Below, piece by piece: positions 14,948 to 30,390 of a stretch of 31,614 bases of DNA. The translations under genes were made by a program, and so were the position numbers. Below the pieces are notes generated by a model, which saw only the letters and a list, made by a program, of their open reading frames with translations, searched no databases and was not told the DNA's origin. Source of the DNA: a virus (taxonomy: Duplodnaviria > Heunggongvirae > Uroviricota > Caudoviricetes); IMG/VR virus record IMGVR_UViG_2579778529_000009, positions 1 to 31,614 of that record; one strand, written 5' to 3'. Every line of letters starts with the position of its first letter. Position 1 is the stretch's first letter.

Positions 14948-15022
<75 letters not shown>

Positions 15023-22738: not shown

Positions 22739-22959
22739 GCTGCACCTCCGAGATGCTTCATGTTTTTTCCGGAGCGAAAGGTTATAAGCGGCATACTGAC
22801 GCGGTAATTACGGCCCAGCGGTTCACAAATCACCTTCTGACATTCACGGTCAACCAGGCTAACACGTAGAACATGCCCTGCAGGTGTGGTGTACCACTGA
22901 CCCGGACGAGGACAACGGAAAGTCTGATTGGTAAACCGTTTGAAAATATTCCGGATCAT
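22735..22959 (-). CDS. Hypothetical small protein (74 aa)
   Basis: Start and stop both overlap neighbours in ATGA-type couplings, suggesting genuine translation. Confidence 0.4.
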   Translation of the reverse strand: MIRNIFKRFTNQTFRCPRPGQWYTTPAGHVLRVSLVDRECQKVICEPLGRNYRVSMPLITFRSGKNMKHLGGAA

Positions 22960-23501
22960 TTGCGCCCCCTTACCTCTGAAGGGTTCAGCGACAAATTTAT
23001 GAGGCAGGCCAGTGCCGAAGCATCATTAATATAGTCATACAAGCTAACAGCCAGCGGAGATTCGGCTTTTGCCAACATAGGATAAAGCTGCTGCAGCCAG
23101 ACCTGATGAATTGATGAAATGTAGGAACAGAGAACGCTGGCGTTATGTGCAACGTCGCTCGGTACAGCGGGCTTTGAAAGCTGTTTCTCCATCTGGTTAA
23201 AGGCATTGATGTATGCCTCTTTGAACTGGGCAGCACGTTTACCCGTGAAACCCATAGCAAGAAACGCAAAGCCGTCGCGGGTTATTTGATAGCAAGGTAG
23301 TTTGCGGCCTGTGCAATCGGTGTAATCACTCACCGAAAAATTGCGGGCAGTGAATGATGCGGAACATTCAAGCGTGCGGATCTTTTTCAGTACATCGTCA
23401 TGACGTTTGGAGAAGAAGTTGGCAACAGCCAGGGATGAAGTAACAGCCTGACCATCAACGATGGCAATTTCAGGTTGAGTGAGGGTTGGGATCGTAGCCA
23501 T
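22956..23501 (-). CDS. Rha-family phage regulatory protein (from internal ATG 23501; ORF remains open upstream to 24107)
   Basis: MATIPTLTQPEIAIVDGQAVTSSLAVANFFSKRHDDVLKKIRTLE... typical Rha N-terminal domain; AAAGAGG RBS upstream of ATG 23501. Confidence 0.65.
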   Translation of the reverse strand: MATIPTLTQPEIAIVDGQAVTSSLAVANFFSKRHDDVLKKIRTLECSASFTARNFSVSDYTDCTGRKLPCYQITRDGFAFLAMGFTGKRAAQFKEAYINAFNQMEKQLSKPAVPSDVAHNASVLCSYISSIHQVWLQQLYPMLAKAESPLAVSLYDYINDASALACLINLSLNPSEVRGRK

Positions 23502-24103
23502 GATGGCAGCCTCTTTGGTGATTTTTAATAACTCACCACCAAGGCTTTCCACGACCTTATTGGTGGTGAGACGTACAGGGGTGGAAATACCGGTCACCAA
23601 AGAACCCGGCCCAACCGAAGTTGGCCCTGCACGCCCCACCATAATTTGGGCGTAATGCTGCTCATGACACAAAAAAACCGCAAGAGCGCGGTTGTGCGCT
23701 TTGGTGAATTCCGGGTTTCCACGCCCGGCACCCGCTTTATAAGGTGCCTGAACAGTGTAACGTCCCGGAATGGCAGAATCAATGTGCTGGTGGTCCTTCA
23801 CACTCAACAAAATCACGCCTGAATTTCCACAAAGGACTAAAGCATTCATGCGGGTAGTCTTTGCGAAGATAGATAACGCGCTGTGTTTCTGGCTCCCAAC
23901 GAATAACATGAACATAAAGTCCTCTTCCGTCACGAAACCAGCGGTTAAGTTCCTGCACAACTCGCCCCCCACAGTCAGGTAAAGTTCTCTGTGGTTACTT
24001 ACAGCCAGGTGATTTGGTAATCTGCATTCATGCCGTAACAACAGGTGTGCAGCGACACTGACCACCAGCTGTTGCGACAAACGGTTATTTGCCGTTAAAC
24101 TGT

Positions 24104-24655
24104 TCATGCGTTAGTTTCTCCACAGACACAAAACGCCACGACGCCCGGAGCTGCACACTCGCGGGCGTCACTCTTTTCTGGAGCGCAGAAAATTTTGTAG
24201 ACCAGTGCCGCATGCTCCTGGAGCTTCGAAATTGACAGATACAATTCATCATTAATTGCTGTCTGCTCGTGTGGCTCCACTACCCCATCTTCGATTGCCG
24301 AACGAATCTGCTTTGAGTAACTCCCGATCTGTTCGATGACTTCCAGCAGGCGCTGGTTTATATCTGCGTTCTCTACTTCCTCAATTTCAGGAAGCGATAC
24401 AAACACCCCACCAGCAGACTGTGCGACAGCATCCGCAATGTAGTGAGTGCCAGCAGCACGCTGTAAAATCATTGCCCATCCCAGCGGGAAAATCTGATCG
24501 CCATCTGCACGAAGGCGGTTGAATAAAGCGTTCTCTGTAACATCCAGCCACTCAGCAGCTTCAGCGTAACCCCCCGGCAACGCCGCGATAGTTTTTCTGA
24601 CAGCTTTCACGTACCACTCAGGCTGTTTTTCCACTTTCCAGTGATGATTACCCAC
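24104..24655 (-). CDS. Hypothetical regulator in the cII position (function unassigned)
   Basis: 183 aa directly downstream of cro-like gene, start overlaps cro stop; no confident motif. Confidence 0.35.
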   Translation of the reverse strand: MGNHHWKVEKQPEWYVKAVRKTIAALPGGYAEAAEWLDVTENALFNRLRADGDQIFPLGWAMILQRAAGTHYIADAVAQSAGGVFVSLPEIEEVENADINQRLLEVIEQIGSYSKQIRSAIEDGVVEPHEQTAINDELYLSISKLQEHAALVYKIFCAPEKSDARECAAPGVVAFCVCGETNA

Positions 24656-24922: not shown

Positions 24923-24985
24923 TTGCGTGATGAGCATATTATTTCACGCAAATATTTTGCGCAAGTTGATTTGCTTAACGCGCAA
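24923..24985. promoter_or_regulatory. oR-like operator region between cro-like and cI-like genes
   Basis: TTGC-N7-GCAA-type 15-bp sites (TTGCTTAACGCGCAA; imperfect TTGCGTGATGAGCAT) spaced 24/48 bp in the 97-bp divergent intergenic region. Confidence 0.45.
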
Positions 24986-25005: not shown

Positions 25006-25698
25006 ATGAACATAGGAAACCGAGTCAGACAACTTCGCCAGGCGAAGAACATGAAAATAGCCGATCTCGCTGAAGCAATAGGAGTGGATGCGGCGAATAT
25101 CTCACGCCTGGAAACAGGTAAGCAGAAACAATTCACTGAACAAGCCCTGAGTAATATTGCCAGGAGCTTAGGTGTTGATATTGCTGATCTCTTTACCTCA
25201 GACTTCAAAAGTAATACTGTATGCAAAAACAGTATTAGTGAGGATGTTGCGCAGGTGAAGGATGTATTCCGTATTGAAATGCTGGATGTCAGTGCCAGTG
25301 CGGGAAATGGCCTTATCCAGGGCGGTGATGTCATTGATGTGATTCATGCCATTGAATACAGAACTGATAATGCTGTATCGATGTTTGGCGGACGGCCAGC
25401 CAATCACATTAAAGTTATCAACGTTCGTGGGGACAGTATGTGTCCAACCATTGAGCCAGGAGATCTCATCTTCGTTGATGTCAGTATCAATCAGTTTGAT
25501 GGAGATGGTATCTATGTATTTGGTTTTGATGATAAAATTTATGTCAAACGACTGCAAATGATACCTGACAAACTACTGGTGATTTCTGATAACCAGATTT
25601 ACCGTGAATGGGGAATTACCAGCGAAAATGAACACCGGTTTATGGTCTTTGGAAAGGTCTTAATCAGCCAGTCACAAACCCTTAAGCGACACAATTAA
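25006..25698 (+). CDS. CI-like repressor (HTH XRE + S24 LexA-like autopeptidase)
   Basis: N-terminal HTH (NMKIADLAEAIGVDAANISRLETGK); C-terminal S24 domain with Ser in VRGDSM and Lys in YVKRL. Confidence 0.9.
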   Translation: MNIGNRVRQLRQAKNMKIADLAEAIGVDAANISRLETGKQKQFTEQALSNIARSLGVDIADLFTSDFKSNTVCKNSISEDVAQVKDVFRIEMLDVSASAGNGLIQGGDVIDVIHAIEYRTDNAVSMFGGRPANHIKVINVRGDSMCPTIEPGDLIFVDVSINQFDGDGIYVFGFDDKIYVKRLQMIPDKLLVISDNQIYREWGITSENEHRFMVFGKVLISQSQTLKRHN

Positions 25699-25753
25699 CC
25701 CTTACCTCCTCATCAATTAGCCACCCGAAGGTGGCTTTTCATTACTCATCAAA

Positions 25754-25792
25754 TTGCATATCTCGCAACAAAAACACTTGCATAATGCGCAA
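25754..25792 (+). promoter_or_regulatory. oL-like operators downstream of cI
   Basis: Two sites TTGCATATCTCGCAA and TTGCATAATGCGCAA, 24 bp apart, same TTGC-N7-GCAA consensus as the oR region. Confidence 0.45.
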
Positions 25793-26497
25793 CTTCATTT
25801 TATCTTTCTTTCCAGACAAACAAACAAGGTACTAACAAAATTTGGTTGTAACACGGCGTATGGCACATGCGTCGTTAGCGGTCTGGGGACGTTAAAGGGG
25901 ACAATCCACTCCTTGCTCGGGCAAACAAACCAGGTAGCCGGAATGTGCAAGTCAATGATGATGCTGATAAGACGCCTAACCAGCGTGGCGATTCGGTTTG
26001 ACGCCTGGGAAGAGACCAGGGTGCAACGATGAGGGCATTTATGGAACCGCGACAAAGTGTGGTGCCGTAACTGGCTAAGTGCTCTCAGCGTTGTGGTGAA
26101 TGCGCAGGCTGATGCGCGAAAGACATTGCAGATATTGCGGAAAAGAGCTGTTCGGCGGGGCAATTAAATGCCCGTGAGAGTCTGAAATAACCGCAAGCCG
26201 GAGATCAGCACCGGTCACCACAACAGCCACTGCTTTGGCGGTACCAGTTTGTACACTTGCTTCCGGCTGGTACCGTCCTTTTTACAAAACAGAGAAGAGC
26301 ATCACCGGACGACGGGCTCATAACCCAATCCATCCGGGCGGCTGCCACCGCAGGTGTTCTTCTCTGTTTTGTGGAGAAACTAACCGCCCCTGCGGGGGCA
26401 TCTATTGAAACGTAATTGACTCAATAATCGCCGGATGGTGAGGGCTTCCTTTTCCCAAAATTCAGCGCGGTGCAGCGCATATAAAGTGGAGAACGAA

Positions 26498-27034
26498 ATG
26501 TCATTTATTAAAACTTTTTCCGGGAAGCATTTTTATTATGACAAGATAAATAAAGACGACATCGTTATTAACGATATCGCGGTTTCCCTTTCAAATATCT
26601 GCCGCTTTGCCGGTCATCTTTCTCACTTCTACAGCGTCGCCCAACATGCGGTGCTTTGCAGCCAGCTGGTGCCGCAGGAATTTGCTTTTGAAGCTTTAAT
26701 GCATGATGCAACAGAAGCATATTGCCAGGACATCCCCGCACCACTGAAACGACTTCTTCCTGACTATAAACGGATGGAAGAAAAAATAGACGCCGTAATC
26801 CGTGAGAAATACGGGTTACCTCCTGTTATGAGCACGCCAGTGAAATATGCCGATCTCATTATGCTGGCAACCGAACGCCGCGATCTCGGGCTTGATGATG
26901 GCTCTTTCTGGCCTGTGCTGGAAGGTATCCCGGCAACAGAGATGTTCAACGTGATTCCACTGGCTCCAGGCCATGCCTACGGGATGTTTATGGAACGCTT
27001 TAACGAATTATCGGAGTTACGCAAATGCGCATGA
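26498..27034 (+). CDS. HD-domain phosphohydrolase (YfdR-like 5-prime-nucleotidase family)
   Basis: HD motifs (FAGHLSHFYSVAQHAVL...EALMHDATEAY); 178 aa from ATG 26498 with GGAGAA RBS; first gene of early-left operon. Confidence 0.7.
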   Translation: MSFIKTFSGKHFYYDKINKDDIVINDIAVSLSNICRFAGHLSHFYSVAQHAVLCSQLVPQEFAFEALMHDATEAYCQDIPAPLKRLLPDYKRMEEKIDAVIREKYGLPPVMSTPVKYADLIMLATERRDLGLDDGSFWPVLEGIPATEMFNVIPLAPGHAYGMFMERFNELSELRKCA

Positions 27035-28414: not shown

Positions 28415-28445
28415 GGGAAGCAATAAGCTTCCCTTCTCTTTATTT
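28415..28445 (+). terminator. Intrinsic terminator at end of early-left operon, overlapping 3-prime end of convergent gene
   Basis: GGGAAGC-AATAA-GCTTCCC hairpin followed by TTCTCTTTATTT. Confidence 0.5.
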
Positions 28446-30140
28446 AGGTACGCTATCAACACTTTTGAGAATCGTTGATGTTAAAGGCTGCGACTTTAGT
28501 AAGTCTCGAGAAATATCCGGATCTGGTATAGCTATTTTTACTAAACTCTCAAGTTTTTCAAACCACTCCCCATCATTCATTGAGAATAAGTTATGAAGAG
28601 CTTCATTTTTATTTTTGAACCCCCAAGCCTTATAATTATTACCACAGTATTTTGACGCAGCAGTTAGAATATGCCAGCGTAATTTTGAATACTTCCCATC
28701 AAACCTCTTATTTGAGATAAGAGCCTTTAGCCTATACAAGCAATAGCAAGATATATAATAATCATCCTCGAGGGCATCGGAAGAGAAAACCTCATTAAGT
28801 AAGTCACCAGTTAACCTATTTGGATAACGACTGGAATAATCTGGTCTCATCATAACAATAGCAGCATATGCTCGCGCAACTTCTCTGATATCAAATATGC
28901 GTACTGGAGCTATACTTTCTGAACTATACTGCCCCTTTCTTCTCTCAAAATAAATTTTATTTCCTTCAATAGCACCTTTAGCATTAAAATAATGTTCTAA
29001 TTCCCTTAATTTTTTTAGCGTTGAAATGAACTGTGCATCTTCAACTTTAGATTGTCTATTCGTAGCTCGTACAATGTCATCAAGGATCGCTGGCTCATCG
29101 GTTTCAATTAATTTAATCATTAAACTAACTGATTCATCTACTTGAATGTCTTTTGATATAAGAACATTAGACGTTTGACATCCATTAACAATTTGAAAAT
29201 CTCGTATAAAAATTTCTTGCCCTGCAGGCCTCACGCTTGATGCAACTATTGTCACTCCATTATTCATTAAACCAAATCTTGCTTTTTTTCCATCAGTATC
29301 TAGTGTTCCTGCAATTTCTGAATTTACGTCACCATCAATTCCCAGAAAATCTCTAACATTTTCTTCGAATAATTTTTTTCGAGGGTTTCCATTTTTGTCT
29401 TTAAGTATAGAATCAATAAAACTACGAGCTTTGACTGTAGCTACATAGGCATTATTAATATTAGGGGCCGCTGGGAATGGAGCATAGCCTATTGTAGGAA
29501 GTTTAGCTTCTATTGGACCTTCCGCAGCAAGCCAAAGCTCATGAATCATGTCTTTGTGAGCCATAATGAAGGATGTTTCATGTGAAAACCCGAGTGACTT
29601 TAAGCTTTTTTCACCCGATGCAAATGCAGCTTTTATTTCTCTGGCCTCTGTATTTTGTGCAGCACTAAAAAAATATGCGTATAAGTCTGGAAGGCCATTT
29701 TTGACTCTGCCGATATTAGCAAATATCAAGTTGAACATTTTTTTAAAGTCCGCTAGATATTCACTGTGGGGTTGTTGTGGCGCTGGTGAAAGATAATCTC
29801 TTATTGACGCAATGTAAGAGTCTATTTCCTGTTTGCTCCACTTCTCCGATGACTTAGCTTGCGTGAATACTAATGAAACTTGAAACTCGCGACGTGAGTT
29901 TTGGAAAATCTCCTGAAGTTCTTCAGTTGAAAAAATGGCTCTGTCGTCTAAAAATAAAAATGCTCCATCAATACCAGGGTCCGGGCCTTCATACACAAGA
30001 TCACTGACCTCAACTTTGTCGCCTGAGTATTTTGAAAAAGCACAATAGTTCACAAACGCCTCAAAATTTTTGGTCTCCTCATAGGGCGCAGCGAATGCTT
30101 TGCAAAAGGCATCGAAATAAGATTTCGTGACTAAATGCAT
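28440..30140 (-). CDS. Large AT-rich orphan protein (about 566 aa); candidate abortive-infection/defence protein (AIPR-like?)
   Basis: ATG 30140 preceded by AAAGGAG; visibly lower GC than flanks; between xis-like gene and integrase, convergent with early-left operon; possible N-terminal nuclease-like acidic motif (GIDGAFLFLDD...FQVSLVFTQAK), unverified. Confidence 0.5.
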   Translation of the reverse strand: MHLVTKSYFDAFCKAFAAPYEETKNFEAFVNYCAFSKYSGDKVEVSDLVYEGPDPGIDGAFLFLDDRAIFSTEELQEIFQNSRREFQVSLVFTQAKSSEKWSKQEIDSYIASIRDYLSPAPQQPHSEYLADFKKMFNLIFANIGRVKNGLPDLYAYFFSAAQNTEAREIKAAFASGEKSLKSLGFSHETSFIMAHKDMIHELWLAAEGPIEAKLPTIGYAPFPAAPNINNAYVATVKARSFIDSILKDKNGNPRKKLFEENVRDFLGIDGDVNSEIAGTLDTDGKKARFGLMNNGVTIVASSVRPAGQEIFIRDFQIVNGCQTSNVLISKDIQVDESVSLMIKLIETDEPAILDDIVRATNRQSKVEDAQFISTLKKLRELEHYFNAKGAIEGNKIYFERRKGQYSSESIAPVRIFDIREVARAYAAIVMMRPDYSSRYPNRLTGDLLNEVFSSDALEDDYYISCYCLYRLKALISNKRFDGKYSKLRWHILTAASKYCGNNYKAWGFKNKNEALHNLFSMNDGEWFEKLESLVKIAIPDPDISRDLLKSQPLTSTILKSVDSVPK

Positions 30141-30390
30141 AAAAACTCCTTTCTGAAATAAGATAAGTTTATTAGAAACAACAAGATAAAGATAATAGTA
30201 ATACAAGTTAAAGACATACTGCATCACATAAGTTGGTCAAGATCAATAAATCAATAAGGATCCCCTATGTTTTATGTATTGTTGATAATTCTATCACCTC
30301 TTACTTCTGGTCTAAGCGTAACCTACTCAAGAATGCCATTGAAAATGTCCACTGTTCGCTCAAAACAGACTGTCAGGGCTACGCAAGCTG

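Follow-up and report, generated by a model that had tools for sequence, protein, structure and literature searches.

An anticodon-arm-like structured RNA in the early-left leader of an Escherichia coli lambdoid prophage

What does a lambdoid prophage keep between its oL operator and its first early-left gene, if roughly 700 nucleotides (nt) in that place hold no open reading frame (ORF) with an above-threshold Pfam match? We addressed this question for IMG/VR virus record IMGVR_UViG_2579778529_000009, of which the 31,614 nt analysed are called the window throughout. The stretch in question runs from position 25800 to yfdR. The first-pass annotation of the window had placed a highly structured leader here, between oL and the first early-left gene, and this description is supported: the leader is non-coding and belongs to the early-left strand. 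Within the leader lies an element that we call module C, a three-way-junction RNA of 99 nt (26279-26377, + strand). We are highly confident that module C represents a family of conserved structured RNAs made from the + strand. Its function is a more difficult matter. The best explanation, which we hold tentatively and at somewhat less than an even chance, is that the element mimics the anticodon arm of a transfer RNA (tRNA) and is probably cut from the early-left transcript by RNase III.

Structure and conservation of module C

The element was first noted as a perfect inverted repeat of 15 base pairs (bp), and this repeat is found exactly where it had been placed: ACAAAACAGAGAAGA occupies 26284-26298, and the complement 26358-26372. 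The window has no other perfect inverted repeat of 15 bp whose gap is at most 150 nt, and any such repeat occurred in just 2 of 200 Markov-simulated windows. With G-U pairs included it extends to a 25-bp helix (P1), formed on the + strand by 26279-26303 (UUUUUACAAAACAGAGAAGAGCAUC, containing the left repeat arm) and 26353-26377 (GGUGUUCUUCUCUGUUUUGUGGAGA, containing the right one). The nested hairpins reported inside the repeat are present as well, as two enclosed arms. The P2 arm (26305-26337, + strand) consists of a 7-bp helix (26305-26311 with 26331-26337), an invariant asymmetric internal loop of AC (26312-13) opposite AAUC (26327-30), and a tip, GGG-CUCAUAA-CCC (26314-26326), in which a 3-bp GGG:CCC helix carries a 7-nt loop. 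The variable third arm, P3, is a 4-bp hairpin in the window (GCGG-CUGCCA-CCGC, 26338-26351, + strand). The invariant portion of the whole element reads G-AC-GGG-CUCAUAA-CCC-AAUC-C (26311-26331). Folded alone, module C reaches -50.2 kcal/mol (z = -7.35). The proposed folding check, run on a 191-nt region, gave z = -6.5 on the + strand against -3.95 on the - strand.

Conservation of this structure was scored in an alignment of 36 distinct sequences (A1), using 18 pairs from the inner 8 bp of helix P1, P2 and the tip helix. The pairing is well maintained: 93.6% of the cells are paired, against at most 49% after sliding the partners by 1-3 columns. Both-side changes occur in 11 of the 18 pairs, and the observed values were reached in 0 of 500 shuffles; the counts for helix P1 are inflated here, because its 3' strand was located by best pairing. 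P2 is anchored by the invariant core alone and shows both-side changes in 5 of its 7 pairs, with 93% of cells paired. The core itself (G16-C35 of the alignment) is invariant in the 36 sequences, and all of them keep the GGG:CCC helix as G-C or G-U. In the Klebsiella copies P3 has 6 bp with covariation (GCGUUG/CAACGC, GCGCUG/CAGCGU, GUGUUG/CAGCAC); in Mixta, Citrobacter and Buttiauxella it is up to about 39 nt long or branched.

The full 25-bp helix P1 was scored separately, over 25 positions in 21 distinct strand pairs. This yielded 407 Watson-Crick, 93 G-U and 25 mismatched cells, with Watson-Crick pair swaps at positions 5, 6, 9, 10, 12 and 17 from the junction. Since the 93 G-U cells would be A-C mismatches on the other strand, the selected structure is that of the + strand RNA. 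Covariation spans E. coli, Citrobacter, Enterobacter, Kosakonia, Mixta, Klebsiella and P1-type phages.

Module C is widely distributed. A 20-nt core pattern matched at least 120 viral contigs, and the element is present in 2778 of 5426 complete E. coli genomes (about half). A pattern scan of genome contigs located it in enterobacteria of 8 genera; the pattern used was a loose one of 16 nt, and most of its 120 matches arose by chance. A few were true tRNA-Met genes, and no more than about 15 represented the element. BLAST identified it in SfV, SfII, SfIV, the Stx2a, Stx2c and Stx2k phages, cdtI, mEp460 and ST64B, and a covariance model (R1) located two copies in phage P1 and one in the e14 element of E. 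coli K-12. In the genomes that carry it, module C is usually unannotated or overlaid by hypothetical ORF calls. The suggested covariance check against Rfam 15 returned no family for the leader, neither with gathering thresholds over the whole window nor with E up to 10 over 25600-26600, and related loci in phage P1, swi2, IME207, GZ7 and RNA-virus-like contigs gave no family in Rfam 15 either. Module C belongs to an RNA family that is absent from Rfam 15 and tied to phage tRNA operons. Literature searches returned no papers on the module C sequence itself, nothing specific on tRNA-like phage decoys and nothing relevant on xisE with RNase III.

It might be argued that the conservation reflects coding, in small hypothetical ORFs such as mEp460_036 on the - strand or ymfH in K-12, or a palindrome that acts at the DNA level as a protein-binding or recombination site. 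Two ORFs indeed match PHROG families of unknown function (phrog_3651 and phrog_33599), and RefSeq and GenBank annotate ORFs over the element. The PHROG matches can, however, only reflect conserved DNA. There is no above-threshold Pfam match, no frame is consistently open across module C members (stop-free stretches range from 9 to 209 codons), and the length differences of P3 are not multiples of 3. As for a palindrome in DNA, the 93 G-U cells and the compensatory changes point instead to pairing in RNA from one strand. Both readings are therefore very improbable.

Likeness to initiator tRNA

The tip of the P2 arm (GGGCUCAUAACCC, 26314-26326) is identical over 13 of 13 nt to the anticodon stem-loop of the E. 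coli initiator tRNA (tRNA-fMet). The 77-nt tRNA-fMet query matches annotated tRNA-Met genes at 100% in all 5426 genomes, with a median of 4 copies. Three consecutive G-C pairs beside a CAU loop are the hallmark of initiator tRNA. The tip also has the layout of an anticodon loop, i.e. 7 nt closed by a helix, with U33 and a purine at position 37 (C-U-CAU-A-A on GGG:CCC). Diverged copies of module C keep CAU, and most of them keep U33 and A37; positions 32 and 38 vary. Loops observed are CUCAUAA, CCCAUAA and CUCAUUC, and in phage P1 GUCAUAU and UUCAUAU.

The genomic context of the relatives adds to the likeness. In Klebsiella lambdoid phages the same core forms an RNA of 70-71 nt with a 6-bp acceptor-like stem (GGCCUG/CAGGCC), and with a single exception the distinct copies have RCCA as their 3' end. 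At 15 of the 18 loci of this type the element is preceded, at a distance of 6 nt, by the end of a canonical tRNA (Arg, Asn or Thr). This gap is similar to the spacing between neighbouring tRNAs: the Klebsiella element takes the last slot of a tRNA array and is followed by a terminator. In this copy helix P1 and P3 add up to 12 bp and the P2 arm has about 12 layers, lengths that we read as matching those of the two tRNA limbs.

Neither the Rfam tRNA model nor ARAGORN calls the Klebsiella copy. In the leader of the window, no canonical tRNA was called by ARAGORN, nor by Rfam in 25600-26600 at E up to 10. As the window copy ends without CCA, it cannot act as an aminoacylatable tRNA. Compared with tRNA-fMet, the family thus shares the complete 13-nt stretch of the anticodon stem-loop and, in its Klebsiella copies, the size, the slot and the RCCA end, whereas module C has no cloverleaf, no D-arm and no T-loop, and its anticodon stem counts just 3 bp. 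On balance we lean slightly towards tRNA mimicry as the selected feature of module C.

The only tRNA that ARAGORN finds in the window is a tRNA-Gly(UCC) gene at 14948-15022 on the - strand, about 10 kb from the immunity region.

The conserved tip could be read in another way, as the seed of a base-pairing regulatory RNA: the exposed CAUAACCCAAUCC would pair with a translation-initiation region, GGAUUGGGUUAUG, which combines a Shine-Dalgarno-like sequence and AUG. The invariant stretch is partly single-stranded, its complement resembles a ribosome-binding site with AUG, and other prophage regions near tRNAs encode Hfq-dependent small RNAs (Pas, STnc100). Half of the putative seed is, however, locked in the maintained GGG:CCC helix, and no Hfq-type terminator follows the element. 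Moreover, the tRNA-array context and the CCA end of the relatives would be left unexplained. We consider such a seed improbable. The more general proposal of the first-pass annotation, a small RNA, is compatible with the findings in the form of a processed stable RNA, and as such it may still hold.

Proposed processing of the leader and alternative functions

Directly ahead of helix P1 lies T0 (26237-26283, + strand), a 13-bp GC-rich hairpin (26237-26277) followed by C and then U5 (26279-26283). With this hairpin and U-tract it looks like an intrinsic terminator, as far as the letters tell. The stem amounts to -20.5 kcal/mol and the loop, with 15 nt, is atypical; because of this loop T0 was missed by the consensus terminator scan. 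The U-run doubles as the 5' end of helix P1. An equivalent hairpin (-16 to -23 kcal/mol) is present in 16 of 21 diverse relatives, with stem sequences that differ among them (GGCGGUACCAG, GCGGCGUC, GCGGCAUC, UGCCCAUC). The U-run is found in 20 of the 21, and there it ends exactly 27 nt before the conserved core.

Both a conserved T0 immediately upstream and its U-run as part of helix P1 would suit a transcription attenuator, in line with the terminator/antiterminator element that had been suggested for the repeat and the GCCCC hairpin. This suggestion did not hold up. No alternative pairing between T0 and the junction or the terminal hairpin holds across lineages, and T0 and the junction coexist in the minimum-free-energy fold. 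The 3' strand of helix P1 is transcribed about 70 nt after the U-run and therefore cannot influence termination at T0. Furthermore, the repeat is followed by GGAGAAACUAAC and the GCCCC hairpin by AUCUAUUGAAAC; given that neither has a U-tract on the + strand, neither is a terminator, and T0 is the one terminator-like hairpin. Only on the - strand does the scan make a call here, at 26400-26385. An attenuator is accordingly hardly probable.

The GCCCC-UGCG-GGGGC hairpin itself is present as described (26386-26399). It stands behind a conserved single-stranded AACUAACC, with which it occupies 26378-26399 on the + strand. Among relatives the hairpin covaries (GCCCC/GGGGC, CGACCU/GGGUCG, GGCGG/CCGCC) and its 4-nt loop varies (UGCG, UGCA, UACG, GGCA); it is never followed by a U-tract, and lies roughly 5-20 nt ahead of the Shine-Dalgarno sequence of the next gene.

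RNase III requires about two turns (at least 20 bp) of mostly uninterrupted double-stranded RNA, and helix P1 offers 25 contiguous pairs when G-U is included. In relatives the helix counts 20-25 bp; its mismatches number 0-6 and exceed 3 in a single copy. Whether helix P1 is processed by RNase III is to us an evenly balanced question. If it is, the course of events could be as follows. T0 would stop part of pL transcription ahead of helix P1, and transcripts that read through would fold the three-way junction. RNase III would cut the 25-bp helix and so detach the leader from the mRNA. One product would be a stable stem-capped RNA, roughly 60-100 nt long, with the anticodon-arm mimic on display; the other, the downstream mRNA, would be left with a protective hairpin at its 5' end (26386-26399). 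A factor that reads the CAU loop and the GGG:CCC stem would then be bound or diverted by the released mimic. CAU is the main identity element for MetRS. Candidate partners would be MetRS, the 30S P site with IF3, or a VapC-type toxin that cleaves initiator tRNA; in Shigella and Salmonella, VapC cuts tRNA-fMet within the anticodon stem-loop (PMC4705866). A decoy directed specifically against a tRNA-targeting nuclease is, in our opinion, rather unlikely.

Helix P1 could also serve purely in cis, as a processing or stability element. The RNase III site would then determine where the early-left mRNA begins, how stable it is and how it is translated, and the tip would aid only folding or recognition by a protein. 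Such a role is consistent with the site directly upstream of the first early-left gene, which recurs in class 1 and class 2 relatives, with the covarying small hairpin that has a Shine-Dalgarno sequence roughly 5-20 nt further on, and with a 25-bp helix length kept by compensatory changes. On the other hand, the core is also found in places without a downstream ORF to serve (at the end of the Klebsiella array, with CCA, and in the phage P1 array, on 14-bp stems), and a 19-nt invariant core in one arm exceeds what an RNase III site needs. A function in cis only thus seems unlikely.

The explanation that we prefer, an anticodon-arm mimic released by RNase III, has to be weighed against several observations. 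Covariation derives from few lineages, and the helix P1 figures from alignment A1 are optimistic, a bias from which P2 is free. Of the anticodon stem only 3 bp are copied; positions 27-28 and 42-43 are unpaired. The loop of the K-12 e14 copy is UUAAUAA rather than CUCAUAA, and the window copy has no CCA end. Cleavage by RNase III, release of a stable RNA and any action in trans are all steps that we infer. Finally, small RNA-virus-like contigs contain the AC-GGG/CCC-AAUC frame and its flanking helix around unrelated 7-nt loops: at least 6 of the 7 P2 pairs are present in 15 of 106 matches to the frame pattern, against about 1.4 expected. Given this recurrence, GGG:CCC may be part of a structural module of a general kind, and some of the match to tRNA-fMet may be coincidence.

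In the small contigs (1.3-3.9 kb) the frame is seen as GACGGG-N7-CCCAAUCC, with other loops, at 140-190 nt from the ends (L400 188-208, L403 142-162, L419 163-183, and on the - strand of L437 about 165 from the end). The size and ORF pattern of these contigs (one 914-aa ORF) suggest that they are RNA viruses. Their frame may be a shared structural module or a product of convergence.

Two further proposals of the first-pass annotation concerned antitermination. In HK022, put is an RNA of about 70 nt with two adjacent stem-loops in a V shape; there are two copies, putL directly after pL and the other about 270 nt after pR, and put acts in cis on RNA polymerase, through the beta-prime zinc-binding domain (PMC9378689). 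A put-like, factor-independent processive antiterminator in the window might seem attractive: no N-like gene was identified there, and terminators stand in both early operons (T0, and isrK at about 23671 in the pR operon). Like put, module C is a structured RNA in a lambdoid early operon without an identified N gene. Its three-way junction, however, contrasts with the two stem-loops of put; the distance from oL is about 480 nt, the terminator-like hairpin T0 stands upstream of it, and each phage has it once. With BLAST and model R1 a single copy was recovered from each of three sequences, namely the window, the complete mEp460 genome and a 5.2-kb SfV immunity-region locus. Similarity to HK022 is also lacking: model R1 had no match in the whole genome at E up to 10, and blastn-short with the leader gave only chance matches of at most 18 nt. 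Antitermination would, in addition, be pointless for those relatives that close a tRNA array at its 3' end. Hence a put-like function is the least probable of the readings considered.

The apparent second place of BLAST matches in phage records corresponds to the 3'-terminal, yfdR-proximal region of the query and was rejected as a second RNA copy.

A nut-like site with an N function fared no better, as the leader has neither a boxA nor a boxB-type pentaloop and no N-like gene was identified in the window; for boxA (YGCUCUUWA), a search of 25800-26500 allowing one mismatch gave no match, and the genes that come next are yfdR and small ORFs. The ORF of 25 amino acids (26100-26177, MRRLMRERHCRYCGK) in which a mini N-like peptide had been seen does exist, but it is the conserved 5' end of another RNA module of the leader, module B. 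Copies of module B differ in the length of their middle, with every class modulo 3 represented, so that the ORF is no conserved gene. The only Pfam match among ORFs in 25800-26497 falls on this ORF and is sub-threshold (Zn_ribbon_3, 16.3 bits against a cut-off of 27).

Other leader modules, genomic setting and known systems

The leader is a mosaic of modules, each of which recurs in other phages according to BLAST. Besides module C it comprises A, X and B, putative RNA modules that elsewhere flank phage tRNA genes. Module A (25836-26030, + strand) is a structured segment whose homologues adjoin tRNA genes: in phage P1 they follow trnI immediately on its 3' side, and in phiV10-type phages they are found immediately 5' of tRNA-Arg. 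From only 3 sequences, RNAalifold derived a consensus of 56 pairs, with compensatory changes in 7. Element X (26031-26086, + strand) was read from the sequence as a 10-bp stem, GAGGGCAUUU / AAGUGCUCUC. Phage P1 and swi2 have a long-stem element with a T-arm (GGUUCGAAUCC), of which X is a reduced copy; the stem sequence of X also closes a core of the module C type in phage P1. The X stem (AAGAGCAU / GUGCUCUU) is the same as the inner part of helix P1 of module C.

Module B (26090-26224, + strand), which overlaps the start of the interval first noted (26160-26400), folds into a four-arm, cloverleaf-like RNA with a closing stem of 26090-26099 and 26215-26224. Hairpin 1 (26102-26117, + strand) has the loop GGCUGA, and the loop of hairpin 3 (26198-26214, + strand), AGAUCAGCA, is complementary to it. 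Viral contigs hold 66 distinct full copies. Their 5' end (GUGGUGAAUGCGCAGGCUGAUGCGC) and 3' end (GCCGGAGAUCAGCACCGGYCACCAC) are conserved, and the loops GGCUGAU and AUCAGC are mutually complementary. The hairpin-1 pair is G-C in 63 copies, A-U in 3 and never a mismatch. By contrast with these conserved ends, the middle arm is hypervariable (about 12-200 nt), so that total length ranges over 68-218 nt (28, 23 and 15 copies in the three classes modulo 3). The module is found after tRNA-Asn-Thr of phage P1 and in promoter-driven RNA-plus-tRNA operons of swi2 and IME207; further loci are L249 1016-1092, L251 1213-1348, and L005 1513-1648 and 1944-2045. We take module B to be a predicted, widespread phage RNA outside the coverage of Rfam, situated in tRNA-like slots.

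Two other identities came up for module B. The STnc100 model of Rfam has a sub-threshold match of 34 bits to a B-type module of phage P1; published Pas and STnc100 are other small RNAs, of the Q-tRNA-TerB region, and this identity was rejected. A 'tmRNA' called by ARAGORN in phage swi2 (L249 911-1285) spans the X-B array and a genuine tRNA-Met, and is most likely a false positive caused by tRNA-like pieces.

In phage P1 the modules form an array between trnT and tciA (L005 1440-2330, about 69.5-70.2 kb in AF234172), head-to-tail in the order X-B-X-B-C-B-C-B. It includes two diverged copies of module C on 14-bp stems. The genes plp and upl, annotated on the opposite strand of this array, may be spurious ORFs. 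In K-12 the e14 ORF 'ymfH' (L357 2362-2673) starts in a B-type module and runs through T0 and the module C copy; this annotated gene is probably in fact an RNA locus. Among the reported triggers of the retron-Sen2 toxin is a clone of ymfH (bioRxiv 10.1101/2020.06.22.160242). This report is a hint that module C may be linked to defence, with the RNA or a peptide as possible agent.

A wider idea, which we offer as a doubtful one, is that the leader modules and the tRNA regions of phage P1, Klebsiella lambdoid phages and several siphophages encode phage RNAs of a new class, which have the shape of a tRNA or mimic one. The anticodon hairpin of initiator tRNA would be displayed by module C, and module B would be a kissing-loop cloverleaf scaffold with a hypervariable insert. 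These RNAs would be cut out by enzymes that process tRNA or double-stranded RNA and would act in trans on host translation or on tRNA-targeting or retron-type defences. In that case ymfH would be such an RNA locus, and the triggering of retron-Sen2 an RNA effect.

The window belongs to an SfV/mEp460/cdtI-type lambdoid prophage of E. coli and is 100% identical to a segment of strain ETEC1738. A cI-like repressor gene (25006-25698, + strand, from the ORF list) is closed by a terminator at 25719-25736 (+ strand, terminator scan). Two oL operator-like sites (TTGCATATCTCGCAA and TTGCATAATGCGCAA) follow within 25754-25792 (+ strand), as matches to TTGC-N7-GCAA that start at 25754 and 25778. This motif has 7 matches in the window against 1.36 expected, 3 of them in the immunity region (24971, 25754 and 25778); the site at 24971 lies within the cro-cI interval. 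The oL operator-like sites place a predicted pL just upstream of the leader. Since the repressor gene, its terminator and the oL-like sites all precede 25800, the + strand past that point is the early-left (pL) transcript. Its first gene after the leader is yfdR (26498-27034, + strand), which encodes a 5'-deoxynucleotidase according to the ORF list and the RefSeq annotation under the 100%-identical match.

Some other features of the prophage deserve mention. An ORF of 595 amino acids (28440-30227, - strand) lies opposite to and after an Xis/AlpA-like gene and could be an accessory (moron) gene. Rfam finds C4 antisense RNA (83.6 bits) and isrK (67 bits) at 23559-23747 on the - strand, inside an ORF at 22956-24107. 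Because these RNAs lie inside this 383-amino-acid 'Rha/antirepressor' ORF, its 5' third is probably non-coding. The prophage is also predicted to have a P1/P7-type antirepressor module controlled by C4, with an isrK terminator in the pR operon (about 23671).

If the interpretation given here is true, a very common prophage element, present also in Shigella serotype-converting and Stx2 phages, would be a functional RNA and not spacer or ORF. It would explain about 600 nt of conserved non-coding leader in lambdoid phages of this group, and an RNA-level tRNA mimic would be added to the ideas of phage tRNAs that counter tRNA-targeting defences. Candidates for factors that read the initiator-tRNA anticodon arm would become testable. 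For databases, the leader provides two or three new RNA families for Rfam and points to likely spurious ORF annotations in many phage genomes, phage P1 plp/upl included.

Several known systems invite comparison. YrlA (RF02553), the tRNA-like structures of plant viruses and the thrS operator are RNAs that likewise copy part of a tRNA; YrlA, a bacterial Y RNA-like RNA, combines a Ro-binding stem with a tRNA-like domain that has a T-arm, and the thrS operator mimics an anticodon arm. Module C differs from them in having neither T-arm nor D-arm, and it is located neither at a viral 3' end nor upstream of an aminoacyl-tRNA synthetase gene. YrlA itself was not found in the leader region of the window at E up to 10; a sub-threshold match of 23 bits lies elsewhere in phage P1. 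A second parallel is provided by phage T4, whose species 1 and 2 RNAs (rnaC and rnaD) are stable non-tRNA RNAs inside a phage tRNA cluster. Like these, members of the module C family are small structured RNAs that are co-transcribed with phage tRNAs and presumably processed by tRNA-maturation enzymes. The comparison is one of descriptions: module C has an anticodon-arm-like tip and sits, in lambdoid prophages, in the pL leader on a long helix. The third is the RNase III site in the pL/N leader of lambda. Module C is distinguished from it by a three-way junction with a 19-nt invariant arm, by the absence of nutL, boxA, boxB and an N gene, and by relatives outside any leader. What both have in common is a long hairpin in the early-left leader, between the operator/promoter and the first gene; the 25-bp helix of module C is long enough for RNase III, and processing would uncouple the leader from the mRNA.

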